Shown: piece by piece, positions 15,361 through 58,240 of the stretch
Layout of the letters: every line of letters begins with the position of its first letter
How positions within the stretch are numbered: the first letter of the stretch is position 1
Source of the DNA: Flavobacteriales bacterium
Lineage (GTDB): Bacteria; Bacteroidota; Bacteroidia; Flavobacteriales_F; PHOS-HE28
Length of the DNA stretch: 64,000 nt
Reading direction: 5' to 3'
NCBI GenBank assembly: GCA_016710015.1
Contig: JADJLR010000002.1
Location: 416,365 to 480,364, forward strand
Made by a program: the position numbers and the translations under genes
The notes under the pieces: generated by a model
Seen by the model: the letters and a program-made list of their open reading frames with translations, nothing else
Databases searched by the model: none
Told to the model about the DNA's origin: nothing

Positions 15361-15366
15361 TCGCCG

Positions 15367-23316: not shown

Positions 23317-25776
23317 ATGAAGTACAAGCACTTAGTGATAGGAATTCTGACATGGTGCTGCCTATACCCGATGCTTGGCCTCGGTCAGGATCTCACATTG
23401 CAAAGTGGTTGGCCAGGGGCCAACGGGCATATCCGAGCCATGGTCCTTGATCCTGCAACCGACGTGCTCTATGTTGGAGGGACCTTCACTGAAGTGGACG
23501 GCTCGCCAAGGACTAGACTGGCCGCCTTTGATGCCGTGACCGGTAACCTTCTCCCGTGGTCGCCGTCGGCAAATGACGGTGTCTTTGCCATGGCCATTCA
23601 TGATGGCACGTTGTACATCGGGGGTGATTTCACTGAACTTGCTGGCGAAGTCCGAGGCCGTTTGGGTGCTTTCGACCTTGCCACTGGCGATCTGACGACC
23701 TGGGCACCCAGCGTGAACGCTACTGTATTCAGCATCCTCGCTGGCAGCATTGCCATCCACGTGGCCGGTGACCTGACCGTCGCCAATGGTGTTACCCGAA
23801 ACCGCGTTGGCGCTTTCCACCCCACAACAGGAGCGCTACTTCCTTGGAACCCGAATGTGACCGGGTTCGTTCGTACACTGCTCCGTGATAACAGTTCGAT
23901 CTTGATCGGAGGCACCTTCACCCTTGTGGGAGGCCAAGCCCGGACCATGCTGGCCGAGGTGGATGACGCCATTGGTACGTTGTCACCATGGGATCCTGCG
24001 CCCAACGGTACCGTGCTTTCCTTGATCATGCATGGCGGAACGGTGTATTGCGGAGGTAGCTTCACGTCCATTGGTGGCATACCACGCACCTCACTTGCAG
24101 CCATCGACCGCGCCACTGGAATACCGACTTCTTGGGCACCCTCGGTCAATGGAGCGGTGAATCAATTATGTATCTGGAACGATAACCTGATCATTGGCGG
24201 CTTCATGTCCCAAGTACAGGGTCTGGCGAACCAGCATTTGGCTTCGTATTCGATCGCTACGGGAGTGCTCAATACACCGCCGCCTGCTCCATCCTCTACG
24301 GTCTATGCTATGGTGGTTCACGGTGACGAACTATACACTGGTGGCGTTTTCACCCTGATCAACCCGAACATCCCGCGCTTACGCTTCGCGGCATGGAGCC
24401 TTTGTCAACCCACCACGTGGTATGCCGACGGGGATGGTGATGGACTTGGGGACCCTAGCGTTCAAGAGGTTGCGTGCACTGCGCCCACCGGCTTCGTGGG
24501 CAACAACGACGATTGCAACGATAGTGATCCGGAGCTCCTAGGGCCCACGCTGTGGTTCGCGGATAGTGATAACGACGGCGCCGGAGATGCGAACATGACC
24601 ACATTAGCGTGCGTCGCGCCGCCCGGATATGTGCACAATAGCGATGACTGCGACGACGGCGACCCCGAACTGATCAGCCTTACGATCTGGTATTTGGATG
24701 GTGATGGCGATGGCTACGGGAACATCTTCGCCCCGACCCAACTGGCTTGCGGCGCACCCGCAGGCTATGTGGACAACCCCGATGATTGTAACGATTCGAA
24801 CCCGAACATCCACACCATCCGGAATTGGTTCGCGGATACCGACGAGGACGGTTTCGGAGACCCCTTGATCCCACTTAGCGCCTGCAACCAGCCTCCTGGC
24901 TTTGTGGCCGATTCCACCGACTGTGACGACGACGACCAGCTTTGGTTCATCGGGGCAGCATGCGATGATGGCGACCCAGCTACGGAAGGCGATGTGGTCG
25001 AAGCGGATTGTGTCTGTCGGGGATCGGGGGTCCAAGTGGAGGTGCGTGTCTGGTTGGAAGGGGCGTACACCCCCGGAAGCCTGATGTCCGCTTCCCTTTT
25101 CCAGAACGGTCTGATCCCTTTGACGGAACCCTATACGGCATTGGGCTACACCCATATCGGTGGTGGCGGCGAAACCACCACAATGCAAATGCTCGACCCC
25201 TTCCCTGGCACGGATGAACACACCGCCGTGGATTGGGTAGTGCTGGAATTGAGGGATCAGAATCAACCATCATTGATCGTGGCAACCCAATCATGCATCC
25301 TTCGACGGAACGGACTGATCACCCGGACGGACGGCTTGGACCTACCAGTATTCATGGTGGCCGCTGATGTATACTTCGTTGCCGTGCGGCACAGAAACCA
25401 CCTGGGGTTTCATAGTCTATTCCCTGTGAACCTCGGAGTACCGATCCCCCCAGTCGTGGATTTCGCATCCGGCCAAACCGCGACAGCCGGCACCAATGCC
25501 CTCAAGCCCATGGGGCAGCGCATGGTAATGTGGTCCGGTGATGCGCAATTCGATCGGAATCTGAAGTACACCGGATCGGCGAACGACCGAGATCTGATCC
25601 TACAACGCATCGGTGGCATAGTACCAACGAATACGGTGAGCGGATACTATCCAGAGGATCTGAATTTGGATGGTCAGGTCCGATACACCGGCACGAACAA
25701 CGACCGGGATCTGATCCTACAGAACATCGGAGGAGTGGTACCTACCACCATCCGCTACGACCAACTCCCGAACTAG
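23317..25776 (+). CDS. secreted multi-repeat protein: ~9 beta-propeller-like ~47-aa repeats, MopE-like putative metal-binding repeats, C-terminal dockerin-like duplicated Ca-binding motif
   Basis: Signal peptide MKYKHLVIGILTWCCLYPMLGLGQ. Repeats L(L/T)PWxPxxNGxVxxxxxxGxxLYxGGxFTxxxGxxRxxLAAxD. Four or five W(Y/F)ADxDxDGxGD...C blocks (WYADGDGDGLGD, WFADSDNDGAGD, WYLDGDGDGYGN, WFADTDEDGFGD). The tail carries two copies of NDRDLILQ(R/N)IGG(I/V)VPT, each preceded by a D-x-D/N-x-D-G-like segment. Confidence 0.65.
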   Translation: MKYKHLVIGILTWCCLYPMLGLGQDLTLQSGWPGANGHIRAMVLDPATDVLYVGGTFTEVDGSPRTRLAAFDAVTGNLLPWSPSANDGVFAMAIHDGTLYIGGDFTELAGEVRGRLGAFDLATGDLTTWAPSVNATVFSILAGSIAIHVAGDLTVANGVTRNRVGAFHPTTGALLPWNPNVTGFVRTLLRDNSSILIGGTFTLVGGQARTMLAEVDDAIGTLSPWDPAPNGTVLSLIMHGGTVYCGGSFTSIGGIPRTSLAAIDRATGIPTSWAPSVNGAVNQLCIWNDNLIIGGFMSQVQGLANQHLASYSIATGVLNTPPPAPSSTVYAMVVHGDELYTGGVFTLINPNIPRLRFAAWSLCQPTTWYADGDGDGLGDPSVQEVACTAPTGFVGNNDDCNDSDPELLGPTLWFADSDNDGAGDANMTTLACVAPPGYVHNSDDCDDGDPELISLTIWYLDGDGDGYGNIFAPTQLACGAPAGYVDNPDDCNDSNPNIHTIRNWFADTDEDGFGDPLIPLSACNQPPGFVADSTDCDDDDQLWFIGAACDDGDPATEGDVVEADCVCRGSGVQVEVRVWLEGAYTPGSLMSASLFQNGLIPLTEPYTALGYTHIGGGGETTTMQMLDPFPGTDEHTAVDWVVLELRDQNQPSLIVATQSCILRRNGLITRTDGLDLPVFMVAADVYFVAVRHRNHLGFHSLFPVNLGVPIPPVVDFASGQTATAGTNALKPMGQRMVMWSGDAQFDRNLKYTGSANDRDLILQRIGGIVPTNTVSGYYPEDLNLDGQVRYTGTNNDRDLILQNIGGVVPTTIRYDQLPN

Positions 25777-25830
25777 GAGGCGCGAATATCTCGTACGGAA
25801 CCTTCAACCCCATGGCCCCGTTGAAAGGCC

Positions 25831-27408
25831 ATGGACCCACGCACCTTGGTCATGCTTTTGGCACTGGCCGGAAGCCAGCTGCATGCGCAGGACTTTGTTC
25901 TGGACCCTTCATTCGGAACAAATGGCGTGGCCTATCAGCCTGGTCCGGAGCCATACAGCGGCGCATCTCCGCTTGTTATGGAGACCCTTCCCGATGGTGG
26001 ATTCCTCAGCCTGCATAGTGCAGGTGTGGACGCTATAAAGGTCATGCGCTGCACGCCGAACGGCAAACCGGATAGCAGCTTCGCGATCAATGGGCACTTC
26101 ATCCTCGCTCCGCCTTCCATCGGACTAATCCCTTCAGGTATGGTGGTGCGGCCGGATGGGAAGATCATCATTACCGCGACCGGCCTTTTTCAAGGCACGA
26201 ACGATCCGAAAATCTTCATCTGTCAACTCCTGCCGAACGGAGTGCCGGATCCTTCCTTTGGAGTGGACGGCGTTCTCTACTACAATATGCCCGTGTACCA
26301 GATCCTTCGGGACGCAGTGCTTCAGACGGACGGGAAGATCTTGGTGGCCGGCGGTTCGTCCGGCTCCATGTTCGTAAGCCGTTTCCTACCCAATGGGGAT
26401 CTGGACCTATCCTTCGCCACGAACGGTATCGGACTATACAACCCACCCGGCGTAACGGCTTCGGCCAAAACGATCGCCTTGGGTCCTGATGGTAGCATCT
26501 ACGTTGGCGGTTTCAAATCCATTGGTGCTGATGCCTCGGCATGGGTCGTGGCAAAGGCCGCCCCGAACGGTGTCCTCGATCCGTCATTCGGCGATGGCGG
26601 TATCTTCTTCTTGGACCACGTGCCCGACCAATCCACCATGTCCAACAAACCGGAGTGCATCATGGACCTGATGGTACTGGATGACGGTTCGCTGATCGCG
26701 GGTGGCTATGTGGCACTTTCCGACACTTGGGAACGCTTGGCCATAATGAAATTGGATGCTTTCGGCCAAGCCGTGCACGAATTCGGTGATAACGGACGGA
26801 TCTATGCCGGCACACTTCCAGAGGGCCGGTACTTAGGCAAAGAGTTGGTGTATGACCCTACCGGGTTATTCATCTTGGTCGGATCGATGCTTACCTTGGA
26901 CAATAGGAAGGAGGTTGTGATCCTGGCCTTCGATGGGATGGGCACTGTGCTGGATCAGAATGGCAGCAACGCGCCATTTCAGTTTCAGCCTGAGGTCCAG
27001 ATGCAGTTGACCACTTGCGGCACCTTCGACCTTCAAGGCCGATTGATCGTGGCCGTGAGCCATTGGAACCAACCCGAAGGCAGATCATCCTTCATCGCAT
27101 TCAACTTCGATATCAATGTCGGCTCGAATGAATTCCCGGAAAACTCCATCGGCCTTTCCGCTTGGCCCAATCCCACCTCGGGTCAATTGAGTATTTCCTA
27201 TGACCTGCAGGCTGCTTCCAAGGTATCCGTAGATTTATTGGATGTATCCGGACGAACGGTGGAGCGGTCACTCACGAACGCGCACAGGAGCTCAGGTGCG
27301 CAATTGGAACACCTGTCCCTCGACCCCTCCCTATCCAGTGGCACGTACCACCTCAGGGTACGGACCGGAGCTGGCTCCTGGACACGAACAGTTGTTATCG
27401 ATCGGTAG
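25831..27408 (+). CDS. delta-60 repeat beta-propeller protein with T9SS type A C-terminal sorting domain
   Basis: Signal peptide MDPRTLVMLLALAGSQLHAQ. Repeated DPSFG(x)NG / DSSFAINGH / DLSFATNG motifs (TIGR02608-like). C-terminus reads WPNPTSGQLSISYDL...VDLLDVSGRTV...SGTYHLRVRTGAGSWTRTVVI (Por_Secre_tail). Confidence 0.8.
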   Translation: MDPRTLVMLLALAGSQLHAQDFVLDPSFGTNGVAYQPGPEPYSGASPLVMETLPDGGFLSLHSAGVDAIKVMRCTPNGKPDSSFAINGHFILAPPSIGLIPSGMVVRPDGKIIITATGLFQGTNDPKIFICQLLPNGVPDPSFGVDGVLYYNMPVYQILRDAVLQTDGKILVAGGSSGSMFVSRFLPNGDLDLSFATNGIGLYNPPGVTASAKTIALGPDGSIYVGGFKSIGADASAWVVAKAAPNGVLDPSFGDGGIFFLDHVPDQSTMSNKPECIMDLMVLDDGSLIAGGYVALSDTWERLAIMKLDAFGQAVHEFGDNGRIYAGTLPEGRYLGKELVYDPTGLFILVGSMLTLDNRKEVVILAFDGMGTVLDQNGSNAPFQFQPEVQMQLTTCGTFDLQGRLIVAVSHWNQPEGRSSFIAFNFDINVGSNEFPENSIGLSAWPNPTSGQLSISYDLQAASKVSVDLLDVSGRTVERSLTNAHRSSGAQLEHLSLDPSLSSGTYHLRVRTGAGSWTRTVVIDR

Positions 27409-27670
27409 TATCAGTGCCATCGGTTGGTAACTGCTCACGCGCAGGTCCCGGTTCCAGCGGCGCATCGACCACTTCCGAGAGGAACCAAGCCAAGAGCACG
27501 ATCAGCAAGAGTGCCAAGAAGGCCTTGGGATCCCGGTATATCGGCAATTTGGGCCGTTGGACAGCGCGATGGTAGTTGTGCAATAGGCGCTTCGGATCCT
27601 TCAAGCGTTCGATCTCCTTCGCTGTGGGCTCCGGCCTTCCTTCCGGGGTTATGTGGTAACGTCGTTTCAT
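27395..27670 (-). CDS. small single-pass membrane protein, putative anti-sigma factor partner of the upstream ECF sigma
   Basis: ATGA overlap with the sigma-factor stop. 91 aa with one TM helix (AFLALLLIVLLAWFL), a basic N-terminus and a short acidic C-tail. Its 3' end overlaps the convergent gene (25831..27408) by 14 nt. Confidence 0.45.
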   Translation of the reverse strand: MKRRYHITPEGRPEPTAKEIERLKDPKRLLHNYHRAVQRPKLPIYRDPKAFLALLLIVLLAWFLSEVVDAPLEPGPAREQLPTDGTDTTDR

Positions 27671-28203
27671 GCCCGTTGTGAAAGGTAGGTGCGTAGCGTG
27701 GCAAGGACCCGATGTGTCCGCATCTTGGCCGCATCCTCAGCGATCCCTAGGACCTGGCCGATCTCTTGGAAACTAAGTCCATCCATGTACCGGAGTTCGA
27801 CCAGGTGTGCCTTGGCCTCATCCAATCGACCCATCGCCTGTGCCAATCGTGCCAGCTCTTCCTCGACCGGCGGCATTCCAATTTCCTCCGTCAACCCCAA
27901 GACTTCCGCGAAGCTCATTTCCACCAAGATCTCTTTCCGTTTCCTCCAATACATGCGCACTTCGTTCAGCGCGATCCGATACAACCAAGCCCTGAACGGT
28001 AGGCCGCGATCCGTATAGCGAGGCAGCGCCAGCATGGCCTTCAGGAAAGCATCCTGTGTGATATCAGCGCTCCGCTGACGGTCCCTGATGCGTCGCTCCA
28101 CGAAGCGATAGATGTCCCCGAAGTACCGCTCGTACAACGGCGTAAAACGCTGTGGATCGGCCTTGGCGGCTCGTATGGCCGCAGCCTCGCTTTCGGGATC
28201 CAT
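27667..28203 (-). CDS. RNA polymerase ECF-type sigma-70 factor
   Basis: Region 2 motif FTPLYERYFGDIYRFVERRIRDRQRSADITQDAFLKA. Region 4 motif LVELRYMDGLSFQEIGQVLGIAEDAAKMRTHRVLATLR. Confidence 0.9.
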   Translation of the reverse strand: MDPESEAAAIRAAKADPQRFTPLYERYFGDIYRFVERRIRDRQRSADITQDAFLKAMLALPRYTDRGLPFRAWLYRIALNEVRMYWRKRKEILVEMSFAEVLGLTEEIGMPPVEEELARLAQAMGRLDEAKAHLVELRYMDGLSFQEIGQVLGIAEDAAKMRTHRVLATLRTYLSQRA

Positions 28204-28350
28204 TCGGTGGGTTCGGTAATGGAATGCACTCCGGTGGAAAAGGTAACACGCTATTCGGCGATGCCATGTAGGAGTTCGTCGAAACCTTAAAGCGTTTTAC
28301 CCGTTCCAAGGGCTAACTCAAAATCGGCCAAGACGGTCCATACGAGATAA

Positions 28351-31300
28351 ATGATCCTCTGGATGCCCATTGCTCATAGGCGATCCCTGCTCCTAGTCAT
28401 ACTCCTGACCCATCTACTGCTAGCCGGTGCCGCTAGTGCCCAGTCCTATGTCTGGCAATGGGGACACTCGCTATCCAGCAGCGATAAGGAGGAGGTGACC
28501 GGGGTCGCGATGGACAATGCCTCAGGTGCGTCATACGCTTGTGGATATACAGAAGGAAATGGTCTTATCGGCGGATCAAGCGGGACCGTTGGAGGAAACG
28601 TGGATGCCTTCGTAATGAAGTACGACCAGAACGGCGTCCGTGAATGGGCGTTTACTCCAACAAGCCTGAATGATAGCAGAGCTACAGGTATTGCCTTGGA
28701 TGCCGCTGGGAATATCTATGTCTGTGGTTGGTTCAAAGGGGTTATTGACATTGCAGGTAACTCCGCGCTGGGAACAGGCTTATTGTCCAGTTCCGGCAAC
28801 ATAGACTGGTTCATCGCATCCTTTTCACCGAACGGAATACTGAGGTGGAAGGCCAAGCTCGGAGGATCCGGGGACGACCTTCCTGCCGGCATCGCCGTTT
28901 CAGGGGATCAGGTCTCCGTGTTCGGGACCGTCAAAGGGCGGATCACGACCTCGTTCGGATCCATTTCAAACAGTCTGCCCTCCGGCAAAGAGAACTTGGT
29001 GATCGTCAGTTATGGATTGAACGGGACCGGCCAGTGGCTGATCTCCGGAGGAAGTGGCGATGATGAGATCCCACGATCCATCGCTAAGGACGCGAGCCGT
29101 GTGTTCGTGGCATTCAGGGCGAAGAACAACCCCTTCAGATGGTACGATCCAGCAGGTGCGGTCCTATCAAGTCACTCCAATTCGACGGACAAGGAAGTGC
29201 GGATTTCCGCGTTCAGCATCAGCGCTGCACACTTATGGACCACTTCCCTTTTCGAAAATGACAACGTGGACATTAGTGGGGCGGGCATGGCGGCGGGCTG
29301 CGATGCGCTCTACTATTCCAGCATCAGTCATTCTCCCTGCACATTCCCGGGAGTTGGCGTGGTCAACACCGGTACGCATGATTTCTTCTACCTCGGTCGC
29401 ATCGACCCGAACACCGGTCTATTTCAATGGGTGACCACCGGCACTACGACCGGTTCCACCCATACCATAGGAGGAACAGGAATAGCGATCGGAAGAGCAG
29501 GAGCGGTGCATGTGGTCGGCAACTTCAAGGACGATGTTTCGATCGATGGAAATACGTTGTTGTCAAGTACAGGTAAGGTCCAACCGTTCGTTGCCACCTT
29601 CCGGTCCTCCGGCATCCTCGTCCGGAACGACAAACTGACCAGTTCCAAGGATGCTTGGGGGGCATGTATTGCTTCTGACGCACAAGGAAGGCTCGCCATA
29701 GGAGGGCGCTTCAACACGAATATCTCGAGCAGTACGATTCCATTGACGGGACCTTCCAATGACAACGGTTACCTTTTCAAGGGTTCCATTGCCAATTTAG
29801 GCGGTGCCGAACCCTCTGCTTGGACCCCGCCTGGGACCATGTGTTCGAATGCGGGTCCATTTTCGTTGAATTCCTTGCTCATAGCCTACGGGAGCGGACC
29901 AGCAGTATCTGTCGCTAATTCCAGCAATGTGGTCTCGCCAAATGGAGCGCTCGGTGCCGTACTTGGCAGCTACGCACAGTTCAACACCGCTGGTGGGCAT
30001 ATCACCGTAGACCTTGGGGTCACAGTACCCTCCGGAACGACGATCAGTGTACTCTGGCGCACATCAGGAGCATCAGCCTCTGCGAACATCCTTTCCGGAA
30101 CAACCACCAGCCCGACAGCTTCTGCAGGCACGATCAGCACGGCCTCCAATTCGGCGATCTATTCGGATATCACGCTGTCCGGTCCTGCGCGATACATCAG
30201 GCTCCAACGTCCAAGTTCGGGCAGCTCGAATTTCGAAGTGGACGGTATCTACTACAGTTTCGGCAATGACCTTAGCGGCACATGGTCCGGACCAGGCGTG
30301 TCCGGATCCACCTTCAACCCTGCGGGACTGTCCGGAGCCGTTGCGTTGACCTATACCGTCGGCAGCGGATCCTGTGCATCGTCCACGACCGATTCCATCC
30401 AAGTGACCGCAGCTCCGAACGCAGGTACGAACGGAACGCTGTCGACGTGCAGTGGTTCACCAGCAGCCAGCTTATTCGCACAATTGGGTGGTACTCCGCA
30501 GACCGGTGGCATCTGGTCGGGACCAAGCCCAGTAGTCGGTGGCATGTTCGATCCGAGCAACATGAGCCCCGGCAACTACATGTACACCGTTGCTCCGACA
30601 GGTATTTGTGCGGGTTCGGCCACAGCATCGGCCTCTGTGACGGTCGGTGCCACCCCGAGTGGTGGCACCTTCACTGGGAATGGGGTGGTTTGCCCTTCCC
30701 CAGCGACCGGTACGCTGACGATAACCGGATATAGCGGCACGATCGTTCGTTGGAGGGTATCAACGAACGGCGGCACGCTTTGGACCTCGATCGGCTCCAC
30801 AAATTCCAGCATCACGTGGAGCAACCTCACCGGTCCAACACAGTACATGGTGGAACTAAGCCAACCCGGTTGTGGAACTGGTTTCAGTCCGGTGGCCACA
30901 CTGACGCCGCAAGACATGATCGCACCATCGATCATTTGCCCGGCGGTCGCCCCGATCCAAACCGCTTACGCCACGCCCTCATGCTCCATGCAAGTTCCCG
31001 ACTTCAGGACCTTGTACACTGCATCGGACAATTGCACGGCCACACCGACCATCGTCCAGGATCCGGCGGCGAACACATTCGTACCATTCGCGGAATACTT
31101 GTTGGTCCAACTGAAAGCCGTGGACGCGGCCGGAAATGGTTCCGCATCGTGCATGGCTACCATCATCGGTGTGGATACACTTCCTCCGACCTATAGCTGT
31201 CCAGGGGATGTGAATATCAATACCGATCCAGGTGCCTGCGGTGCAAGTCGCACGTTCTCGCCTATCGGATATTCGGACAACTGTTACGGGAATGGTAATT

Positions 31301-34300
31301 CGGAAGCGCTCTACCTCGCTCCCGGGAACGTGAGCCAGACGCCACTCTCGATATTCGACCCGACGGATTGGGTAGATATCACCGCGACCCCAACTCAGAC
31401 CCTTTCATTGGGTGATCATACGGTAGCCTATGTGCACGAGAACGGCGTTGAGGACGTAGTGCTTTGTTCGCAGATCATTCGAGTGACAGATTCACAACCT
31501 CCACAGATCTCCTGTCCAGCGGGTGTTCTGGCAATCACCAACACCGGTTGTACCGCTACTGGTGTCGCCCTCGGTACGCCGGTGTCTAGTGACAACTGCG
31601 GTGTGGCTTCCGTAACGAACGATGCTCCGGCCGTCTTCCCGATCGGTGTGACCACCGTGACCTGGACCGTGACCGACAACGCTGGATCGACCGCTACCTG
31701 CACACAGACCGTCACCGTGAGCGACAACGTGCCACCTACGATCACCTGCCCGGCCGACGTTGCCGTGAACACCAACAGTGGTTGTACCGCTACTGGTGTC
31801 GCCCTCGGTACGCCGGTGTCTAGTGACAACTGCGGTGTGGCTTCCGTAACGAACGATGCTCCGGCCGTCTTCCCGATCGGTGTGACCACCGTGACCTGGA
31901 CCGTGACCGACAACGCTGGATCGACCGCTACCTGCACACAGACCGTCACCGTGAGCGACAACGTGCCACCTACGATCACCTGCCCGGCCGACGTTGCCGT
32001 CAACACCAACAGTGGTTGTACCGCTACTGGTGTCGCCCTCGGTACGCCGGTGTCTAGTGACAACTGCGGTGTGGCCACCGTGACGAACGATGCTCCGGCC
32101 GTCTTCCCGATCGGTGTGACCACCGTGATCTGGACCGTGACCGACAACGCTGGACTGACCGCTACTTGCACACAGACCGTCACCGTGAGCGACAACGTGC
32201 CACCTACGATCACCTGCCCGGCCGACGTTGCCGTCAACACCAACAGTGGTTGTACCGCTACTGGTGTCGTCCTCGGTACGCCGGTGTCTAGTGACAACTG
32301 CGGTGTGGCTTCCGTGACGAACGATGCTCCGGCCGTCTTCCCGATCGGTGTGACCACCGTGATCTGGACCGTGACCGACAACGCTGGACGGACCGCTACC
32401 TGCCACAGACCGTCACCGAGGACACGCCACCTCGCCGGCCGACGGCTGGAACACCAACAGTGTCCGTGTCCCGCGGGTAACACGGGCCCTCGCGCGCTCT
32501 GTGCGCCACCATGCCGGACCGACAACGCTGGACTGACCGCTACTTGCACACAGACCGTCACCGTGAGCGACAACGTGCCACCTACGATCACCTGCCCGGC
32601 CGACGTTGCCGTGAACACCAACAGTGGTTGTACCGCTACTGGTGTCGCCCTCGGTACGCCGGTGTCTAGTGACAACTGCGGTGTGGCTTCCGTACGAACA
32701 TGCTCCGGCTCTCGTCCGCCGGCAGTACTGGTGTGCCTCGGTACGCGGTGTCTAGTGACAACTGCGGTGTGGCTTCCGTGACGAACGATGCTCCGGCCGT
32801 CTTCCTGGTGTGACACCGGATCGGACCGTGACCGACAACGCTGGATCGCCGCTACCTGCCACAGACCGTCACCGTGAGCGACAACGTGCCACCTAGATCG
32901 CCTGCCCGGCCGACGTTGCCGTCAACACCAACAGTGGTTGTACCGCTACTGGTGTCGCCCTCGGTACGCCGGTGTCTAGTGACAACTGCGGTGTGGCTTC
33001 CGTGACGAACGATGCTCCGGCCGTCTTCCTGATCGGTGCGACCACCGTGACCTGGACCGTGACCGACAACGCTGGACTGACCGCTACTTGCACACAGACC
33101 GTCACCGTGAGCGACAACGTGCCACCTACGATCACCTGCCCGGCCGACGTTGCCGTCAACACCAACAGTGGTTGTACCGCTACTGGTGTCGCCCTCGGTA
33201 CGCCGGTGTCTAGTGACAACTGGGTGTGGCCTCTGCCGTCGTGGACCGAGTGACACTGCCACCACTCCCTGCCGTGCCCCAGGGTGTCCCTGGTGTCGTC
33301 CTCGGTACACCGGTGTCTAGTGACAACTGCGGTGTGGCTTCCGTGACGAACGATGCTCCGGCCGTCTTCCCGATCGGTGTGACCACCGTGACCTGGACCG
33401 TGACCGACAACGCTGGACTGACCGCTACTTGCACACAGACCGTCACCGTGAGCGACAACGTGCCACCTACGATCACCTGCCCGGTCGACGTTGCCGTCAA
33501 CACCAACAGTGGTTGTACCGCTACTGGTGTCGCCCTCGGTACGCCGGTGTCTAGTGACAACTGCGGTGTGGCCACCGTAACGAACGATGCTCCGGCCGTC
33601 TTCCCGATCGGTGTGACCACCGTGATCTGGACCGTGACCGACAACGCTGGACTGACCGCTACTTGCACACAGACCGTCACCGTTTCGGATGCGACGGCCC
33701 CTTCTGCTGACTGTCAGAATATTACCGTTCAACTTGATGCAAGCGGTAGCGCTACCATCACGCCTGCTTCCATTGATGGCGGCAGTAGCGATAACTGTAG
33801 TGGCTTTACTCTGAGCGCTTCTCAGACTGTCTTCAACTGTAGCCATATTGGAGTAAATACCGTGACACTCACCGTTACGGATGCTTCCGGCAACGTGGGT
33901 ACGTGCGATGCGATCGTAACCGTGGAGGACACCATCGATCCCACTATCACTTGCCCAGGAGATCAAACCGTACAACTGGCATTCGGTAGCACCGGCACTT
34001 GGTATGTACCTGTCATCAACGCGAATGACAATTGTGGAATTTCAGCGATCGCCCCAGCCGTTACGGACAGTTTGTGGCTCACTGCCGGAACGCATGCACT
34101 CGCCTATACAGCTTATGATGCAGCCGGGAATTCCTTTGAATGTGATTTTGAAGTGACAGTAGACATCTTAGATTGCTTTGGAACGCCAAATGGTACCGCA
34201 TTCCTTGACAACTGCGCAACATGCGTGGGTGGCAACACCGGTGAAGTAGCTTGCGTGCAAGACTGCAACGGTGACTTCGGCGGTACGGCATTCCTTGACA

Positions 34301-37300
34301 ACTGCGCAACTTGCGTGGGCGGCAACACCGGTGAAGTAGCTTGCGTGCAAGACTGCAACGGTGACTTCGGCGGTACGGCATTCCTTGACAACTGCGCAAC
34401 TTGCGTGGGTGGCAACACCGGTGAAGTGGCTTGTGTGGCTGACTGCAACGGTGACTTCGGTGGTACCGCATTCCTCGACAACTGCGCAACTTGCGTGGGT
34501 GGCAACACCGGTGAAGTGGCTTGTGTGGCTGACTGCAACGGTGACTTCGGCGGTACGGCATTCCTCGACAACTGCGCAACCTGCGTGGGTGGCAACACCG
34601 GTGAAGTAGCTTGTGTGGCTGACTGCAACGGTGACTTCGGCGGTACGGCATTCCTCGACAACTGCGCAACCTGCGTGGGTGGCAACACCGGTGAAGTAGC
34701 TTGTGTGGCTGACTGCAACGGTGACTTCGGCGGTACGGCATTCCTCGACAACTGCGCAACCTGCGTGGGCGGCAACACCGGTGAAGTAGCTTGTATCCAA
34801 GACTGCAACGGTGACTTCGGCGGTACGGCAGTCCTCGACAACTGCGCAACCTGCGTGGGCGGCAACACCGGTGAAGTAGCTTGTATCCAAGACTGCAACG
34901 GTGACTTTGGCGGAACGGCATTCCTCGACAATTGCGCAACCTGCGTGGGCGGAAACACCGGTGAAGTAGCTTGTATCCAAGACTGCAACGGTGACTTCGG
35001 CGGTACGGCATTCCTCGACAACTGCGCAACTTGCGTGGGTGGCAACACCGGTGAAGTAGCTTGTGTCCAAGACTGTAACGGTGACTTTGGCGGTACGGCA
35101 TTCATCGACAACTGCGCAACCTGCGTGGGTGGCAACACCGGTGAAGTAGCTTGTATCCAAGACTGCAACGGTGACTTCGGCGGTACGGCATTCATCGACA
35201 ATTGCGCAACCTGCGTCGGTGGCAACACCGGTGAAGTAGCTTGTGTGGCTGACTGCAACGGTGACTTCGGCGGAACAGCATTCCTCGACAACTGCGCAAC
35301 TTGCGTGGGTGGCAACACCGGTGAAGTAGCTTGTGTGGCTGACTGCAACGGTGACTTCGGCGGAACAGCATTCCTCGACAACTGCGCAACTTGCGTGGGT
35401 GGCAACACCGGTGAAGTAGCTTGTGTGGCTGACTGCAACGGTGACTTCGGCGGTACGGCATTCATCGACAATTGCGCAACCTGCGTCGGTGGCAACACCG
35501 GTGAAGTAGCTTGTGTGGCTGACTGCAACGGTGACTTCGGCGGAACAGCATTCCTCGACAACTGCGCAACTTGCGTGGGTGGCAACACCGGTGAAGTAGC
35601 TTGTGTGGCTGACTGCAACGGTGACTTCGGCGGAACAGCATTCCTCGACAACTGCGCAACCTGCGTCGGTGGCAACACCGGTGAAGTAGCTTGTGTGGCT
35701 GACTGCAACGGTGACTTTGGCGGAACAGCATTCATCGACAACTGCGCAACCTGCGTGGGTGGCAACACCGGTGAAGTAGCTTGTGTCCAAGACTGCAACG
35801 GCGACTTTGGCGGCACAGCATTCCTCGACAACTGCGCAACCTGCGTGGGCGGCAACACCGGTGAAGTGGCTTGTGTCCAAGACTGCAACGGCGACTTCGG
35901 TGGAACGGCATTCCTTGACAACTGCGCAACTTGCGTGGGCGGCAACACCGGTGAAGTAGCTTGTGTGGCTGACTGCAACGGTGACTTCGGCGGAACAGCA
36001 TTCATCGACAACTGCGCAACCTGCGTGGGTGGCAACACCGGTGAAGTAGCTTGTATCCAAGACTGCAACGGTGACTTCGGCGGTACGGCATTCCTCGACA
36101 ATTGCGCAACCTGCGTGGGTGGCAACACCGGTGAAGTAGCTTGTGTGGCTGACTGCAACGGTGACTTCGGCGGAACAGCATTCCTCGACAACTGCGCAAC
36201 CTGCGTGGGTGGCAACACCGGTGAAGTAGCTTGTATCCAAGACTGCAACGGTGACTTCGGCGGTACGGCATTCCTCGACAACTGCGCAACTTGCGTGGGT
36301 GGCAACACCGGTGAAGTAGCTTGTATCCAAGACTGCAACGGTGACTTCGGCGGAACAGCATTCATCGACAACTGCGCAACCTGCGTGGGTGGCAACACCG
36401 GTGAAGTGGCTTGTGTCCAAGACTGCAACGGCGACTTCGGTGGAACGGCATTCCTTGACAACTGCGCAACTTGCGTGGGCGGCAACACCGGTGAAGTAGC
36501 TTGTGTGGCTGACTGCAACGGTGACTTCGGCGGTACGGCATTCATCGACAATTGCGCAACCTGCGTGGGCGGCAACACCGGTGAAGTGGCTTGTGTCCAA
36601 GACTGCAACGGCGACTTCGGTGGAACAGCATTCATCGACAACTGCGCAACCTGCGTGGGAGGTAACACCGGTGAAGTAGCTTGTGTGGCTGACTGCAACG
36701 GTGACTTCGGCGGTACGGCATTCCTTGACAACTGCGCAACTTGCGTGGGTGGCAACACCGGTGAAGTAGCTTGTGTGGCTGACTGCAACGGTGACTTCGG
36801 CGGAACAGCATTCCTCGACAACTGCGCAACCTGCGTCGGTGGCAACACCGGTGAAGTAGCTTGTGTGGCTGACTGCAACGGTGACTTCGGCGGAACAGCA
36901 TTCATCGACAACTGCGCAACCTGCGTGGGTGGCAACACCGGTGAAGTAGCTTGTATCCAAGACTGCAACGGTGACTTCGGCGGAACAGCATTCATCGACA
37001 ACTGCGCAACCTGCGTGGGCGGCAACACCGGTGAAGTGGCTTGTGTCCAAGACTGCAACGGCGACTTCGGTGGAACGGCATTCCTTGACAACTGCGCAAC
37101 TTGCGTGGGTGGCAACACCGGTGAAGTAGCTTGTGTCCAAGACTGCAACGGTGACTTCGGCGGTACGGCATTCATCGACAATTGCGCAACCTGCGTGGGC
37201 GGAAACACCGGTGAAGTAGCTTGTGTGGCTGACTGCAACGGTGACTTCGGCGGTACAGCATTCATCGACAACTGCGCAACCTGCGTCGGTGGCAACACCG

Positions 37301-39096
37301 GTGAAGTAGCTTGTGTCCAAGACTGCAACGGTGACTTTGGCGGCACAGCTTTCATCGACAATTGCGCAACCTGCGTGGGTGGCAACACCGGTGAAGTGGC
37401 TTGCACCGCTGACTGCAACGGTGACTTCGGCGGTACGGCACTTCCAGGCACGACCTGTGACGACAACAATGCCAACACGGTAGGTGACACATGGAACACA
37501 AGCTGCGCGTGTATCGGAACACCGATCAACTTCGATTGCGAAGGCGTTAGTGGCGGAAGTGCTTCACCCGGAACCGCTTGTGACGATCAAAACGAAGGCA
37601 CCATCAACGACATCTGGACCGCAGATTGCCAGTGTAGCGGAACGATCGTATCGTGCAGCAGTGATGCAGGTGCCGACCAAAGCACGTGTGCAACAGCATT
37701 GAATTTGAACGCGAGCGGCATAGGTTCATGGAGTGGTCCGGGGTTCGTGACCATATCTGAGATCGACTCTCCTCAGTCCTTGATAACGTGTACCGTCCCT
37801 GGCACCTATACACTTGTTTGGACCGTAAGCATTCCAGGCTGCACGGCGACGGACGACGTAGAGGTGACCTTCCATGGAACACCGGATGCTTCATTCACCT
37901 ACGCGAGCACCACGATCTGCTCCGATGGCTCCATCATATCCCCTTCCACCTCCACCACGGGCGGCACGTTCATGGCACCGACCGGGCTAGCGATCAACGC
38001 TAGTAGTGGCGCTATCGATCCGAGCAACAGTGAGCAAGGCAGCTATGAAGTCACCTACACGTTGGATGGCACTTGTCCGATAAGCTCCATGCAAGTGATC
38101 ACCGTGAATGATGCATTGGACCCTTCTTGGGCCGCTCCGCAATCGGTCTGTGCAAACGCAACGATCATCTCTTTGGACGAATTGATCACCGGTGATGGTG
38201 GCGGTATCTGGAGTGGACAGGGCGTGAATGCAGCTATGTTCGACCCCGCAGTAGTAGAGGGTAGCTCGTTGGTGACCTATACCGTTGGCTCGGGTAGCTG
38301 CGAACAGAGCAGCAGTGCTACGATCGTTGTGACTCCGGCACCGCAAGCCAATGGAGGAGCCGATGCATTCACGTGTGATCCCGAATACCAATTATCGGCG
38401 AACGCTTTCGGTGGAACCGGGATATGGAGTACCGATGGCATGGCCCAATTCCTGCCAAATGCCTCCGACCCGAACGCGATCGTGACCGGAGCAGGTCCCG
38501 GAACGTATGTCCTCTTCTGGACGGTCTCCAATGACGTTTGCTCTTCCACGGACACGATACGGATCACATTCCTCGACCCGGCCACCGACCTGACCATCGA
38601 TGCCGGACAAGACCAGATCTTGGAGGTAGAGACCAACACATTCTTGGAAGCGACCACCACTCCTGGAGCGAATGTGACATGGACCCTACTGAATGGATCC
38701 GGGTCCATCGCAACGCCGAACGCGGCTCAAACCGACGTTCATGGCTTGGGTATCGGTCCCAATACATTCATCGCCACGGTGTCATTGGGTCAATGTATCG
38801 GTACATCGGATACGATCGTCGTGCGGGTGAAGGATCTATTCATTCCACAAGGTTTCTCACCGAACGGGGATGGCGACAACGACCTGTTCGAAGTGACCGG
38901 CATGGCGGCCTATCCGGGAAGCGAACTGATGATCTACAACCGTTGGGGGCAAGAAGTGTTCTCCGACCCAGCCTATGCCAACGGTTGGGGCGGAAGGTCC
39001 AAGAATGGAAGCGACCTACCCAATGACACCTATTTCTACCTGCTGAACCTATCTGACGGAACCGCGTACAACGGCTTCGTAGTCATCAAACGATGA
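28351..39096 (+). CDS. giant SprB-like cell-surface adhesin with T9SS type B (gliding motility-associated) C-terminal domain; reading frame disrupted within the HYR array (about 32400-33300)
   Basis: Signal peptide MILWMPIAHRRSLLLVILLTHLLLAGAASAQ. N-terminal beta-propeller-like repeats, then HYR (hyalin-repeat) domains (DNVPPTITCPADVAVNTNSGCTATG...SSDNCGVASVTNDAPAVFPIGVTTVTWTVTDNAG). Next come 36 x 30-aa Cys-rich repeats, PKD/SprB-like domains, and the C-terminus KDLFIPQGFSPNGDGDNDLFEVTGMAAYPGSELMIYNRWGQEVF...NDTYFYLL (TIGR04131-type). Three ORF pieces (28351..32781, 32972..33253, 33226..39096) are joined by degraded repeat copies. A PorP/SprF gene follows immediately. Confidence 0.75.
31490..33690 (+). 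repeat. tandem 240-bp (80-aa) near-identical HYR-domain coding repeats, ~9 copies, three of them degraded by indels
   Basis: The string gtgccacctacgatcacctgcccggccgacgttgcc recurs at a 240-nt period (e.g. 31729, 31969, 32209). The junk segments 32395-32520, 32690-32900 and 33205-33300 are recognisably the same repeat with many small deletions. Confidence 0.8.
34167..37440 (+). repeat. 36 tandem copies of a 90-bp unit encoding a 30-aa four-cysteine repeat DCNGDFGGTAF(L/I/V)DNCATCVGGNTGEVAC(V/I)(Q/A)
   Basis: Counted from the translation: 36 DCNGDFGG occurrences plus a degenerate first copy (DCFGTPNG). DNA copies differ mainly at third codon positions (ggc/ggt, acg/acc/aca, ctt/ctc, gta/gtg, tgc/tgt). 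The peptide varies only at V/I, Q/A and L/I/V. Confidence 0.9.
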
Positions 39097-40016
39097 GGAC
39101 CAAAGGACATATCCTCCTTGTCGTAGCCATGATCTGCGGGAAGCAAATGACCGGTCAACATACGCCATTGACAAGCCAATACCTGTTCAACGGATTGGTG
39201 ATCAATCCCGCCTATGCTGGCAGTCGTGATGCATTGGCGGCCAACCTCACCTATCGTCATCAATGGGCCGGTCTCGATGGTGCCCCGGTGACCCAGATCG
39301 CCAGCATCCATGCTCCAGTGGCCCGACGGAAGGTGGGTTTGGGACTCCTATTGTACAACGACAAGATCGGCGTGAGCCAAGAGACCGGTCTCTTTTCGAA
39401 CTACGCGTACCGTGTGCGGTTCAGAAATGGGAAACTCTCCTTCGGACTGGGTGCCGGCCTCACCTTCCTACGCAGCCAATGGTCGACCTTGGCGATCCAG
39501 CAGACCTCGGACATTTCCTTCGCCTCGGATACGCGTAGCGCCATTCGTCCCAACTTCAGTACAGGGGCCTTCTACTACACCAAGAATTGGTTCGTTGGAG
39601 TCTCCGCTCCTTTCCTGATCGTACACCGTTACTCGGTGAACAACGATGGCTGGAAGCTCTCGGACAGCCGTGGAGATCTGCAACCTATGCTAACGGGCGG
39701 GTACGTATTTGAACTTTCCCGGGAAGTGAAACTGAAACCGAGCACCTTGGTCCGTTACCGCACAGCGACCGGGGTTCAAGCCGACCTTAGCACGAACCTG
39801 ATCTACCAGGATCGGATCTGGTTGGGAGCATCATACCGCTCCGGAGATGCCTTCGTTGCCTCGCTCGAAGTGCTGCCCACACCCCAGTGGAGACTCGGAT
39901 ATGCGTATGATCTGGGAATGTCCAAACTACGTGCAGCTCATTTCGGTTCGCATGAGGTGATGCTCCAATATGAATTCGGCTACCGTATCCGAGTAAAAGA
40001 CCCTCGCTCATTCTAA
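39093..40016 (+). CDS. sprF: PorP/SprF family type IX secretion system membrane protein
   Basis: ATGA overlap with the adhesin stop. The N-terminus reads HTPLTSQYLFNGLVINPAYAGSRDALAANLTYRHQWAGLDGAPVT, typical of TIGR03519. It is about 300 aa with beta-barrel character. Confidence 0.85.
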   Translation: MRTKGHILLVVAMICGKQMTGQHTPLTSQYLFNGLVINPAYAGSRDALAANLTYRHQWAGLDGAPVTQIASIHAPVARRKVGLGLLLYNDKIGVSQETGLFSNYAYRVRFRNGKLSFGLGAGLTFLRSQWSTLAIQQTSDISFASDTRSAIRPNFSTGAFYYTKNWFVGVSAPFLIVHRYSVNNDGWKLSDSRGDLQPMLTGGYVFELSREVKLKPSTLVRYRTATGVQADLSTNLIYQDRIWLGASYRSGDAFVASLEVLPTPQWRLGYAYDLGMSKLRAAHFGSHEVMLQYEFGYRIRVKDPRSF

Positions 40017-42206
40017 ATGCTTCGCAAGCTCTCCATAGCCTTCGTGTTGCTCGCCAATGTTGGTGTGGCTCAGGAGTCCCATGAGGTAATGCCCCTAGCA
40101 CTTGGCAACATGACGGAGGACTATGCGCCGGTCTTTCTGGATTCGGGTTTCGTTATGAGTTCCATCCGGGAGACCGAAGCCACCATCGCATTCAAGGACG
40201 CAGAAACCGGCCGACCGCTTGCCGACCTATACTGGGTCCCCCTGATGGACAATGTACCGGGCACTCCGGTCCTCTTCAGTGCGAACCTAACAACACCGGT
40301 GAACGAAGGTCCAGCTGCATTCACACACGGTGGTAAAACGATCTGCTACACCCGGAATGTGACACTTCCGAAGAAGTTATCCAACCTCCGCGCATCGAAT
40401 TCCCAACTCGGACTCTTCTTCTCCGATCTGGAGAACGGGACCTGGTCTTTGCCGATCCCTTTCATGCACAATAGCACCAAATACTCGGTGATGCACCCAG
40501 CGATCAGCATCGATGGCAACACCCTGATATTCGCCAGTGACATGCCAGAGGGCCTTGGTGGCATGGACCTCTACCGCAGTACTCGAACCGTCGAGGGCTG
40601 GTCCACGCCGGAGAATCTCGGTGCTGCGATCAATGGCCCGAACAACGATGTATTTCCCTCCTTCGGTCCGAACGGTGCCTTGTACTACTCCAGCGACCGG
40701 ATCGGCGGAATGGGCAAACTGGACCTCTACATGGCTCCGCGCAACGGTCCTACTTGGAGTGATCCGACCGCCCTGCCAGCCCCGATCAACTCTCCGGGGA
40801 ACGACATGGGGATCACCTTCCGCGCCGATGGACGCAATGGTTACTTCAGTTCGAACCGAAGTGGGACGGATCGGATCATGTCCATGAAGTGGACCGTTCC
40901 GAAATTCCGGGACTGTGCACCTCAAGAGCGAAACAATTACTGTTACGCCTTCCGAGCCAAGAAGCATGCCGCCACAAGTTCACTCCCGCTTGACCACGTT
41001 TGGGAACTTGGTGACGGTACCCGCACCACCGGTTTGGTCGCCGAACACTGCTACGACCAGCCAGGCACCTACGTCGTACGCTCCTTGCTCGTGGATCGCA
41101 AGACCGGGGATGTCTTCCATCAACTCAAGGAGCACGAGTTGGTGATCGATGATGCCCAGCAAGCTTGGATCTCATCACCGGATACGGTGCGCACTGGACG
41201 TGCGATGGCCTTGGATGCATTCAATAGCCACCTGACCGAATGGGAACCCTCGGAATACCATTGGGATATGGGAAATGGCTCAGTCCTTCAAGGCGAGAAG
41301 ATCCAGCATACGTTCCGGATACCTGGAGTGTATGAAGTCAAATTGGATATTCTTTCCCAACCGGATGCCAACGGTGCGATCGCCAACCAGTGCAACACCC
41401 GAACCGTGGTGGTCTTGGATCGCTTCCACGATCAGGAGGACCTGACCGTGGTGGCCACCTACCAAGATGTCATGGGGGCCACACACACGTTCGAGTACCA
41501 AGAATTGCCCTTTGATCAATTGGGTATGGCCATGGATGAGATGGCGGATGCTACCTTCTCCGTGGAACTCTTTGCATCGAAGGATCGGATCAGCTTGGAC
41601 GATCCGAAATTCATGGAAGTCCGCAAACTGTATAGGGTGGTGGAACGTTTCGATCCGGAACGCGGCGTGTACACCTATTCAGTAGGTGAGACCAGTGATC
41701 TGGAAGAGCTTTACAAAGTGTTCAAGAAGGTGAAGGAGTTGCAATTCCTGGATGCCGAAGTATTCCAACTGCAACCCGAGAAGTTGATGGACCTGAGCAA
41801 ACTCGATCTTGCCTCGATCGAAGAGTTGAATCATTCGAAACTGCGGACCAATGCGATCCACTTCGCGTACAAAAGCGCGGATATCGGATCGGGGTCCGAG
41901 GAGACCTTGGACCAGATCATCGGATTGCTCCGTCAACACCCGGAATTGAAGTTGGTGATCGAGGCGCACACGGACGACATTGGAAACAACGCATACAACA
42001 TCGACCTTTCCCAACAGCGTGCGCAGTCCGTACTCAGTTATCTGGAGGAACACGATGTTTCTCCGGACCGGTTGATCCCCGTGGGCCATGGAGAGAACCA
42101 GCCCATGGCGAGCAACAAGACCGAAGATGGGCGCAGTCAGAACCGTCGTGTGGAATTCCGCATGACCGTTAAGGGCGAGGATCAGGCGTTCCAGAAGACC
42201 CGCTGA
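40017..42206 (+). CDS. OmpA family protein with PD40 (TolB-like WD40) repeats and PKD domains
   Basis: Signal peptide MLRKLSIAFVLLANVGVAQE. PD40-like repeats (GGMDLYRS, GKLDLYMA, NGYFSSNRSG). PKD-like blocks (WELGDGTRTTG...GTYVVRS; WDMGNGSV...GVYEVKL). C-terminal OmpA domain reads IHFAYKSADIGSGSEETLDQIIGLLRQHPELKLVIEAHTDDIGNNAYNIDLSQQRAQSV...NRRVEF. Confidence 0.8.
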   Translation: MLRKLSIAFVLLANVGVAQESHEVMPLALGNMTEDYAPVFLDSGFVMSSIRETEATIAFKDAETGRPLADLYWVPLMDNVPGTPVLFSANLTTPVNEGPAAFTHGGKTICYTRNVTLPKKLSNLRASNSQLGLFFSDLENGTWSLPIPFMHNSTKYSVMHPAISIDGNTLIFASDMPEGLGGMDLYRSTRTVEGWSTPENLGAAINGPNNDVFPSFGPNGALYYSSDRIGGMGKLDLYMAPRNGPTWSDPTALPAPINSPGNDMGITFRADGRNGYFSSNRSGTDRIMSMKWTVPKFRDCAPQERNNYCYAFRAKKHAATSSLPLDHVWELGDGTRTTGLVAEHCYDQPGTYVVRSLLVDRKTGDVFHQLKEHELVIDDAQQAWISSPDTVRTGRAMALDAFNSHLTEWEPSEYHWDMGNGSVLQGEKIQHTFRIPGVYEVKLDILSQPDANGAIANQCNTRTVVVLDRFHDQEDLTVVATYQDVMGATHTFEYQELPFDQLGMAMDEMADATFSVELFASKDRISLDDPKFMEVRKLYRVVERFDPERGVYTYSVGETSDLEELYKVFKKVKELQFLDAEVFQLQPEKLMDLSKLDLASIEELNHSKLRTNAIHFAYKSADIGSGSEETLDQIIGLLRQHPELKLVIEAHTDDIGNNAYNIDLSQQRAQSVLSYLEEHDVSPDRLIPVGHGENQPMASNKTEDGRSQNRRVEFRMTVKGEDQAFQKTR

Positions 42207-42327
42207 TCACGCCTCGCGTACAACACGGTTCGACGACGACCGGAGTTCCTGAAGCTTTCGGTCATTGTTCCACGAATGGTCCGCAGATCGTTCCGCTCAA
42301 CCCCATCGTGGTGGATACCTTAGCTGC

Positions 42328-47105: not shown

Positions 47106-47108
47106 AAA

Positions 47109-49343: not shown

Positions 49344-49345
49344 CC

Positions 49346-50065: not shown

Positions 50066-50166
50066 CAACGGACCCTTCACAACTCGATCAACAGAGTTCA
50101 CCAGTCCGGCCTCACGGCTCCGGTTCTTTGTACATCGCTTCCAACGAAGCGTGAACTGAACGACCG

Positions 50167-51105: not shown

Positions 51106-51148
51106 AGCCGCTGTTCTGGACCAACCTTTTGTAGGCAAGAAAGACACG

Positions 51149-53961: not shown

Positions 53962-53973
53962 CGAACTCCATGA

Positions 53974-54022: not shown

Positions 54023-54107
54023 CCAGCTTTGTGGACACCACATGCCACTTGATCCTCGACCCATCCTTTGCATTTCCACTTCCCCCTCTATATTCGACCC
54101 CTGAACG

Positions 54108-58237: not shown

Positions 58238-58240
58238 GCC

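Follow-up and report, generated by a model that had tools for sequence, protein, structure and literature searches.

Array-confined deletions that split a giant T9SS adhesin gene of a PHOS-HE28 flavobacterium are very probably artefacts of consensus and assembly collapse

SprB and RemA of Flavobacterium johnsoniae are surface adhesins that carry a type B C-terminal domain (CTD) for T9SS secretion and have cognate PorP/SprF-like proteins. Other surface adhesins, including the alpha C protein of group B Streptococcus and SasG/Aap of staphylococci, are built from tandem repeats and are polymorphic in copy number. Fragmentation of open reading frames (ORFs) by indels in long-read assemblies was reportedly described by Watson and Warr in 2019. 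The errors that remain after polishing are concentrated in repeats, and polishing with Racon added errors to each of 100 test genomes (Wick & Holt 2022, Polypolish, PMC8812927).

The window analyzed here (the whole stretch of 64,000 nt) comes from an uncultured activated-sludge flavobacterium of the GTDB family PHOS-HE28 (MiDAS species midas_s_758) and contains a locus resembling the SprB/RemA type: a very large repetitive surface protein with a type B CTD, followed by a PorP/SprF gene and then by a gene for a PorE-like OmpA protein (Table 1). It differs from that type in having 17 HYR domains and 36 copies of an unclassified 30-aa Cys repeat, and the likeness rests on the CTD and the gene order. 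The CTD was detected by both Pfam (PF13585, CHU_C, 81.1 bits) and NCBIfam (TIGR04131, 59.8 bits vs a cut-off of 35), the start of the PorP/SprF-family gene overlaps the adhesin stop codon, and the N-terminus of the adhesin (MPIAHRRSLLLVILLTHLLLAGAASAQ) looks, by eye, like a signal peptide. Judged from sequence, the adhesin is a predicted ordinary type-B-CTD cargo of the T9SS with a PorP/SprF partner, and the product of the adjacent gene is presumed to be that dedicated partner. Among GTDB representatives, the adhesin N-terminus matched two more distant relatives, at 67% and 51% identity, and nothing else; the species of the window itself was absent from these matches.

Table 1. Features of the adhesin locus in window coordinates (u, unit position in the intact HYR array)
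Feature	Position	Strand	Details
Giant T9SS-secreted surface adhesin gene	28351..39096	+	One gene, read as three ORFs in the window assembly
ORF1	28351-32781		ORF list
ORF2	32972-33253		ORF list
ORF3	33226-39096		ORF list
HYR tandem array	31536..33683	+	234-bp (78-codon) unit, 2148 bp; TRF, wrap-around alignment
Damage zone S1	32404..32517	+	Intact u4.71-u5.58; 102 bp lost, 12 bp extra, net -90
Damage zone S2	32694..32896	+	Intact u6.33-u10.87; 860 bp lost (about 3.7 units)
Damage zone S3	33223..33290	+	Intact u12.27-u14.10; 361 bp lost
Second tandem array	34192..37445	+	36 copies of a 90-bp unit; TRF, 0% indels
C-terminal T9SS type B sorting domain (CHU_C/TIGR04131)	38842..39087	+	PF13585, residues 1873-1954 of ORF3
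PorP/SprF-family T9SS outer-membrane protein	39093..40016	+	PF11751, E = 5.6e-73, 246 bits; TIGR03519, 251 bits, above cut-off
PorE-like protein with PD40, PKD and OmpA domains	40017..42206	+	Pfam; NCBIfam PorE and CHU_0125 partial, below cut-offs

The original prediction described an array of HYR repeats with three degraded stretches, and both were found close to where it had placed them; alignment to an intact array refined the stretches to zones S1, S2 and S3. The repeat unit was given as 240 bp, which TRF corrected to 234 bp. The units of the HYR array are 95.6-100% identical (between-unit mean, 97.2%), and shifts by one or two units yield identical runs of 290-304 nt at u10.7 and u12.5, inside or adjoining the damage zones. 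The second array, whose 90-bp unit encodes a 30-aa four-cysteine repeat that matched no family in Pfam or NCBIfam, is undamaged in the window, being gap-free against assembly L002 over 33290-50016; the region containing it ranges from about 3.77 to 6.09 kb between assemblies. A phase-variable contingency locus, in which changes in repeat number would act as a frameshift switch, was considered and rejected because the unit lengths of 234 and 90 bp are both multiples of 3.

Comparison with a close relative, a check proposed alongside the original prediction, delimited the damage. In the conspecific assembly L002 (the same assembly as L034; L038 and L039 are likewise the same as L008 and L009, respectively), the HYR array is intact, comprising 14.78 units in 3459 bp with 0 indels, and the adhesin orthologue is one open ORF of 12057 nt (4018 aa) with 17 HYR stretches and a score of 519 bits. 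This 3459-bp array lies on JGI 3300056831 contig Ga0558120_00474. In the window, HYR (PF02494) scored above the gathering threshold in each of the three ORFs (149.7, 38.7 and 93.1 bits for ORF1, ORF2 and ORF3), and codon-phase arithmetic placed the unit in an identical phase in all of them. The window array is collinear with the intact array, with 8 mismatches, and every missing base pair falls within the three zones. Against the intact 14.78-unit array, 53 events remove 1323 bp and add 12 bp, a net loss of 1311 bp (3 x 437) that includes gaps of 134-472 bp; against a single-unit consensus, the damage amounts to 58 deletion events totaling 375 bp and zero insertions. The clean islands correspond to u5.59-6.33, u10.88-12.26 and u14.10 to the end of the L002 array, with 0-1 mismatches each. 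The last clean unit upstream of S1 (32238-32403) has 1 mismatch to unit 7 of L002 vs 4 to unit 4, a preference that counts against a purely collinear collapse, which does not explain that match.

The lesions had been characterized as deletions of 1-3 nt, and the example quoted for them is indeed present from 32401, but in the cores the lesions are far larger. Likewise, the degraded stretches had been called recognizable copies of the unit; this holds only at their edges, whereas the cores at 32452-32519 and 33231-33285 score like dinucleotide shuffles in ordinary gapped alignment (z of 0.4 and 0.9). In a longest-common-subsequence test against the expected repeat, 97% of S1 is a subsequence (z = 7, 0/300 shuffles); the corresponding value is 100% for the S2 core and for S3, although the test is powerless for both. 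The predicted division of the adhesin into three ORFs was observed, but only S2 and S3 cause it: S2 shifts the frame and terminates ORF1 at 32781, and S3 terminates ORF2, with the frame of ORF1 regained in ORF3. Zone S1 garbles approximately 39 residues without introducing a stop, because its net loss of 90 bp is in frame.

All indels of the window lie within 887 bp (32404-33290), while the other ~63 kb is gap-free against independent conspecific assemblies at 99.7-100% identity, as covered by the stretches 1-11084 (L029, 100.000%), 5367-27685, 24518-31718, 33290-50016 and 46783-64000. This clustering is far beyond chance. Within the adhesin gene itself, the 3.2 kb upstream of the lesions is open and gap-free, and the 5.9 kb downstream of S3, spanning the whole 90-bp array, has no gap relative to the intact allele and no stop. 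None of the deletions of the window was found in any other assembly analyzed at the array (L001-L010, L041 and L042). Damage of the same deletion-dominated kind is present in L041 (JADJGD, a Nanopore MAG), which also carries the 14.78-unit allele; its 46 events, which delete 239 bp and insert 4, cluster elsewhere, at u10.3-11.2, u12.0-12.8 and u13.6-14.5. According to gene calls, the adhesin gene is also broken, at differing sites, in eight long-contig assemblies (L001 and L003-L009); in two of these, L001 and L007, the HYR array is indel-free and the break lies downstream of it. A MEGAHIT contig (L010/L040) has the HYR array reduced to 0.78 unit and the 90-bp array shortened, resulting in a falsely "intact" ORF of 2056 aa.

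The provenance of the window was approached indirectly, through a protein: ORF1 is identical over 1472/1472 residues, garbled peptide included, to NCBI entry MBK7618972.1 ("MAG: Flavobacteriales bacterium"). The sister MAGs JADJKF, JADJGD, JADJAQ and JADIYX are listed in Supplementary Data 3 of a Nanopore MAG study of activated sludge (PMC8012365), where JADIYX has a Nanopore/Illumina coverage of 10.5/7.3 and JADJAQ one of 17.8/12.3. The pipeline behind these MAGs comprised Canu 1.8, Racon, two rounds of Medaka and a final Racon step with Illumina reads (PMC8012365). The identical protein, the accession series and the sister MAGs suggest that the MAG of the window was made by the same pipeline. 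A placement of the damage zones at the boundaries of 500-bp polisher windows was considered and set aside, the zones being spaced about 250 and 540 bp apart, which are not multiples of 500.

These observations suggest that S1-S3 are, with high probability, a combined consensus and collapse artefact rather than mutations or pseudogenization. Given that the adhesin gene is unbroken in a different assembly of this bacterium, its breaks in the window are almost certainly assembly mistakes. The sequence comparisons that point to an artefact are the confinement of the damage to the array, its restriction to the window assembly, its position at skipped units, the intact allele elsewhere and the similar damage in a sister Nanopore MAG. 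In the proposed scenario, the organism itself would possess an intact adhesin of about 4000 aa. With noisy long reads at low coverage, the correct repeat register would have been unattainable among near-identical units, so that the assembler and polishers would have merged reads originating from different units. Such merging would have dropped approximately 5.6 units' worth of sequence, leaving three "moth-eaten" junctions in which the true bases survive only in part. We infer both the assembly step that made the scars and the true copy number; the array of the window strain is most likely the 14.78-unit allele of 3459 bp, and its copy number could be anywhere from ~10.8 to 14.8 units.

Two HYR array alleles, of 6.78 and 14.78 units, were identified across assemblies of the species, with flanks ~99.9% identical. 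Clean copies of both are in frame across the array, and the shorter one occurs without array indels in two MAGs. The short allele carries a private terminal unit and is therefore not simply a collapsed long allele, so this flavobacterium of wastewater treatment plants seems to carry real HYR copy-number alleles. Their existence raises the possibility that reads from 6.78- and 14.78-unit (or other) alleles were laid on one backbone, the scattered alignment gaps producing a moth-eaten consensus. That would still be an artefact, arising from real population heterogeneity rather than from read noise alone. The nearly identical flanks of the two known alleles and the deletion-only pattern are consistent with such a mixture, but the losses of the individual zones (-90, -860 and -361 bp) are not whole units. 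In addition, a length mixture is not required, because L041 is equally moth-eaten and has kept all 14.78 units. A mixture of alleles is thus possible but rather doubtful as the source of the scars.

The original prediction had left two readings of the locus: an intact gene of uncertain copy number obscured by consensus error or assembly collapse, or a genuine and very recent pseudogenization. The former is supported by damage that is array-confined and assembly-private and by the open 4018-aa ORF elsewhere, whereas the latter, under which real deletions would have inactivated the adhesin in the window strain, gained no support and is very improbable. It is true that the deletions are present in the deposited sequence, that the truncated ORF is annotated as a protein by NCBI, and that loss or variation is frequent among adhesin genes. 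However, ~53-58 deletion events are crowded into 887 bp vs none in the remaining ~63 kb, and substitutions between strains are only about 0.1%. Real unequal crossing-over would leave clean, in-register junctions, and the sequence after S3 stays open as far as it was compared with the intact allele. The lesions recur in no other assembly, and the analogous damage in L041 lies at different sites. A pseudogene would be expected to carry disabling mutations over its whole length that recur in independent sequence of its lineage, and no such pattern was found. It is scarcely credible that a real, localized, deletion-only scrambling at three sites of the array, for example when replication forks that had stalled or broken underwent error-prone repair, inactivated the adhesin very recently in a genome otherwise ~99.9-100% identical to its relatives. 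The poor alignment of the S1 and S3 cores to the unit under ordinary gap penalties could also be read as a foreign or unrelated insertion, such as a mobile-element remnant or the product of recombination with another locus. This reading was rejected, as having next to no probability, because the cores match nothing elsewhere: their 13-mers have no match in the rest of the window or in conspecific loci, the sole match being one 13-mer in the more distantly related L012. Moreover, the cores are only 42-68 nt long, fit the repeat expected at their register as 97-100% subsequences, and are flanked by repeat sequence that degrades gradually.

With S1-S3 read as an assembly artefact, the value of the finding lies mainly in quality control. 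The deposited annotation fragments one adhesin of ~4000 aa, entry MBK7618972.1 contains a nonsense peptide, and the same gene is broken, at varying sites, in most of the public assemblies of the species examined. Such MAGs would mislead surveys of pseudogenes, adhesin repertoires and repeat copy number. Even an "intact" ORF may be wrong, as illustrated by the MEGAHIT contig, which turns both arrays into a tidy protein. The modest biological point that survives is the variation between 6.78 and 14.78 units, which is ordinary for repeat adhesins. As in the alpha C protein and SasG/Aap, near-identical DNA repeats are arranged in frame and vary in number by strain, with the difference that the variation at this locus is seen between metagenome assemblies only, some of them error-prone.

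Short-read assemblies are known to collapse tandem repeats, an error that is comparable in that copy number is under-represented, as in L010/L040; that kind of collapse is clean and in frame, whereas the collapse in the window is partial and has scrambled junctions. Another likeness is provided by the errors of polished long-read assemblies (PMC8812927), which share with this locus ORF-truncating indels concentrated in repeats that defy unique read placement, clean flanks and, in the pipeline of the sister MAGs, the error-introducing Racon. Those errors are typically single-base indels in homopolymers, whereas here hundreds of bases are lost, units are collapsed and junctions are moth-eaten; damage this heavy is in keeping with metagenomic data of low coverage across an array of 3.5 kb whose units are about 97% identical.

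The HYR array, the tandem repeat within the adhesin gene, has a unit period of 234 bp (78 codons) by Tandem Repeats Finder and by the intervals between occurrences of a marker motif, rather than the 240 bp of the original prediction. Wrap-around alignment of the array to one clean unit gave long perfect stretches with three damaged interruptions (S1, S2, and S3), in agreement with the coordinates and example string previously quoted for them. Relative to the single-unit consensus, 58 deletion events (375 bp) and 0 insertions were counted. Alignments to the unit and to an intact array revealed larger deletions besides the predicted ones of 1-3 nt. Although all three stretches had been described as recognizable copies of the unit, their cores are not: in ordinary alignment, the S1 and S3 cores scored z = 0.4 and z = 0.9, respectively, against dinucleotide shuffles. 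Taken in full, S1 can be read as a 97% subsequence of the repeat expected there (z = 7; 0 of 300 shuffles); for the S2 core and for S3 the figure is 100%, a result without power given that the reference is far longer than the query. A 13-mer comparison matched the cores to nothing else in the window and to no conspecific locus, the sole match being one 13-mer in a more distant relative (L012). The subsequence test and the lack of matches to the cores elsewhere argue against a foreign insertion in the array.

The window array is collinear, with 8 mismatches, with the intact 14.78-unit array of L002/L034 (one public contig of the same species; JGI 3300056831), but is 1311 bp shorter, with the entire loss falling within S1, S2, and S3. 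The clean islands between these zones have 0-1 mismatches to the corresponding L002 units. Since both zones and islands map to the intact array, the damaged stretches are junctions of skipped repeat units. Immediately ahead of S1, the final clean unit (32238-32403) has 1 mismatch to L002 unit 7 and 4 to unit 4, its collinear counterpart, which could reflect another mis-join or genuine gene conversion among units. The total loss equals 3 x 437 bp, and ORF1 and ORF3 are therefore in one frame; arithmetic from the ORF coordinates and the unit period places all three ORFs in one codon phase across the repeat unit. The proposal that the lesions split the adhesin into three ORFs holds for S2 and S3, but not for S1, which leaves the frame intact and garbles ~39 residues without a stop, as visible in the alignment of ORF1 with MBK7618972.1.

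Features of the adhesin locus and gap-free flanks (window coordinates; u, position in units along the intact L002/L034 array; L-numbers, public contigs of the same species)
Feature	Coordinates	Strand	Description
Giant adhesin gene	28351-39096	+	One protein, read as three ORFs in the window's assembly
ORF1	28351-32781	+	1476 aa; Pfam HYR
ORF2	32972-33253	+	93 aa; Pfam HYR
ORF3	33226-39096	+	1956 aa; Pfam HYR and terminal CHU_C type IX secretion sorting domain
HYR array	31536-33683	+	2148 bp
S1	32404-32517	+	Intact u4.71-5.58; 102 bp lost, 12 bp extra (net -90 bp)
S2	32694-32896	+	Intact u6.33-10.87; 860 bp lost; frame shifted
S3	33223-33290	+	Intact u12.27-14.10; 361 bp lost; frame shifted
Second tandem array	34192-37445	+	36 copies x 90 bp (Tandem Repeats Finder)
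PorP/SprF-family gene	39093-40016	+	Next after adhesin (Pfam, NCBIfam)
PorE-like PD40/PKD/OmpA gene	40017-42206	+	After PorP/SprF gene (Pfam, NCBIfam)
Gap-free flank	1-11084		vs L029, 100.000% identity
Gap-free flank	5367-27685		vs L013 and L014
Gap-free flank	24518-31718		vs L010
Gap-free flank	33290-50016		vs L002, including entire 90-bp array
Gap-free flank	46783-64000		vs six assemblies

Many public contigs carry the exact PorP/SprF protein and four further proteins of the window; outside the repeats, these contigs align to the window without gaps at 99.7-100% identity. Given these gap-free flanks, every window indel relative to conspecifics is confined to 32404-33290. If L029 (JGI 3300056625, contig Ga0558121_00012; 2.33 Mb) is collinear throughout, its position 1 would map to ~32803, inside S2, in which case another assembler's contig would have stopped within the same array. 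Two window-private bases, A at 49787 (C in nine other assemblies; probably non-synonymous by codon position) and T at 15284 (A in five others; non-synonymous by codon position), could reflect either strain variation or leftover consensus error. Window 9751-17685 encodes a bacterial alpha-2-macroglobulin (MG domains, A2M, and thioester region) directly followed by a PBP1C-type transglycosylase/transpeptidase, a well-known gene pair. The uneven quality of public assemblies of this species is illustrated by ENA ERZ25039603 contig_84076 (L008/L028/L038), which is very noisy in places: over 17 kb its identity is 97.6% and 101 positions are gaps, and many of its genes are fragmented.

The 90%-identity cluster to which the adhesin N-terminus belongs includes P0028 (NCBI MBK7618972.1, 'MAG: HYR domain-containing protein [Flavobacteriales bacterium]', on a 708,255-bp contig), which is identical to window 28363-32781 at 1472/1472 residues, including the nonsense peptide across S1. 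Supplementary Data 3 of Singleton et al. 2021 (PMC8012365) includes four sister MAGs (JADJKF, JADJGD, JADJAQ, and JADIYX) that form one species cluster (GTDB f__PHOS-HE28, g__PHOS-HE28; MiDAS midas_s_758), with Illumina/Nanopore coverage of 7.3/10.5 for JADIYX and 12.3/17.8 for JADJAQ. From the accession series and naming, we infer that this project also produced the window.

Comparison with a closely related strain, as had been proposed, revealed an open gene in L002/L034: a single frame of 12057 nt (4018 aa; 17 Pfam HYR stretches) containing an array of 3459 bp with 0 indels. The same 14.78-unit allele in L041 (GCA_016708235.1, JADJGD) carries 46 events (239 bp deleted, 4 bp inserted) clustered at u10.3-11.2, u12.0-12.8, and u13.6-14.5, positions that differ from the window's zones, as assembly error predicts and as mutation would not behave. 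A 6.78-unit allele (1587 bp) occurs in eight assemblies, without indels in L001 and L007 and at ~1587 bp with few small indels in L003, L004, L006, L008, L009, and L042; the L005 array is noisy. Private variants in its terminal unit indicate that the short allele is real rather than a collapsed long one. By sequence comparison, the species appears to have at least two real HYR copy-number alleles; the window's strain probably carries that of 14.78 units, and ~10.8 to 14.8 units are all compatible. The gene is fragmented, at differing places, in 8 of 8 other long-contig assemblies with gene calls examined (L001, L003-L009); in at least two Nanopore MAGs, L001 and L007, the frame breaks downstream of the HYR array, in the region of the 90-bp array. 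A MEGAHIT k141 short-read contig (L010/L040; ENA ERZ27280359) has a seemingly intact 2056-aa ORF through collapse of the HYR array to 183 bp (0.78 unit), and its 90-bp array region is also shortened, to ~1.2 kb; thus, an uninterrupted frame does not prove the assembly correct here.

The damage is truly present in the sequence as deposited. The intact L002/L034 allele and the differently placed L041 damage support the original preference for consensus error or assembly collapse, with S1-S3 almost certainly an assembly artefact. Within the intact array, units share 95.6-100% identity (mean 97.2%), and runs of 290-304 bases, at u10.7 and u12.5, within or adjoining damage zones, are identical under one- or two-unit shifts. 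Because individual R9.4 Nanopore reads have error rates above the per-unit differences of ≤4%, reads cannot be kept in register. The errors that survive polishing are concentrated in repeats, and Racon introduced errors in 100 of 100 test genomes (Wick and Holt, PMC8812927). Short and long alleles occurring together in the sample may have helped to produce the moth-eaten junctions. Genuine pseudogenization is highly improbable: it would need >50 deletion events within 887 bp, against a background of ~0.1% substitutions and zero indels between the rest of the genome and its relatives, together with out-of-register junctions that are not a product of unequal crossing-over, while 5.9 kb downstream was left untouched. 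Phase variation is excluded, since both repeat units (234 and 90 bp) are multiples of three.

Each 90-bp unit translates to a 30-aa, four-cysteine repeat (GTAFLDNCATCVGGNTGEVACVxDCNGDFG), for which Pfam and NCBIfam gave no significant family. The region containing this array is of equal length in the window and L002, and ranges from ~3.77 to 6.09 kb across other long-read assemblies of the species. Two T9SS modules of the same layout follow in succession (28351-42206 and 42265-49343), each with a type B CTD cargo, a PorP/SprF-family gene, and a PD40-containing protein: in the first, the HYR adhesin and the PorE-like protein with its OmpA domain; in the second, a DUF7948/PKD/CHU_C cargo and a TPR/PD40/DUF1573 protein. 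The ORF3 C-terminal end is a T9SS type B sorting domain (NCBIfam). Judging from this CHU_C/type B domain and the PorP/SprF and PorE-like genes downstream, damage aside, the gene appears to encode a T9SS surface adhesin of an ordinary Bacteroidota kind, followed by the usual partner genes.
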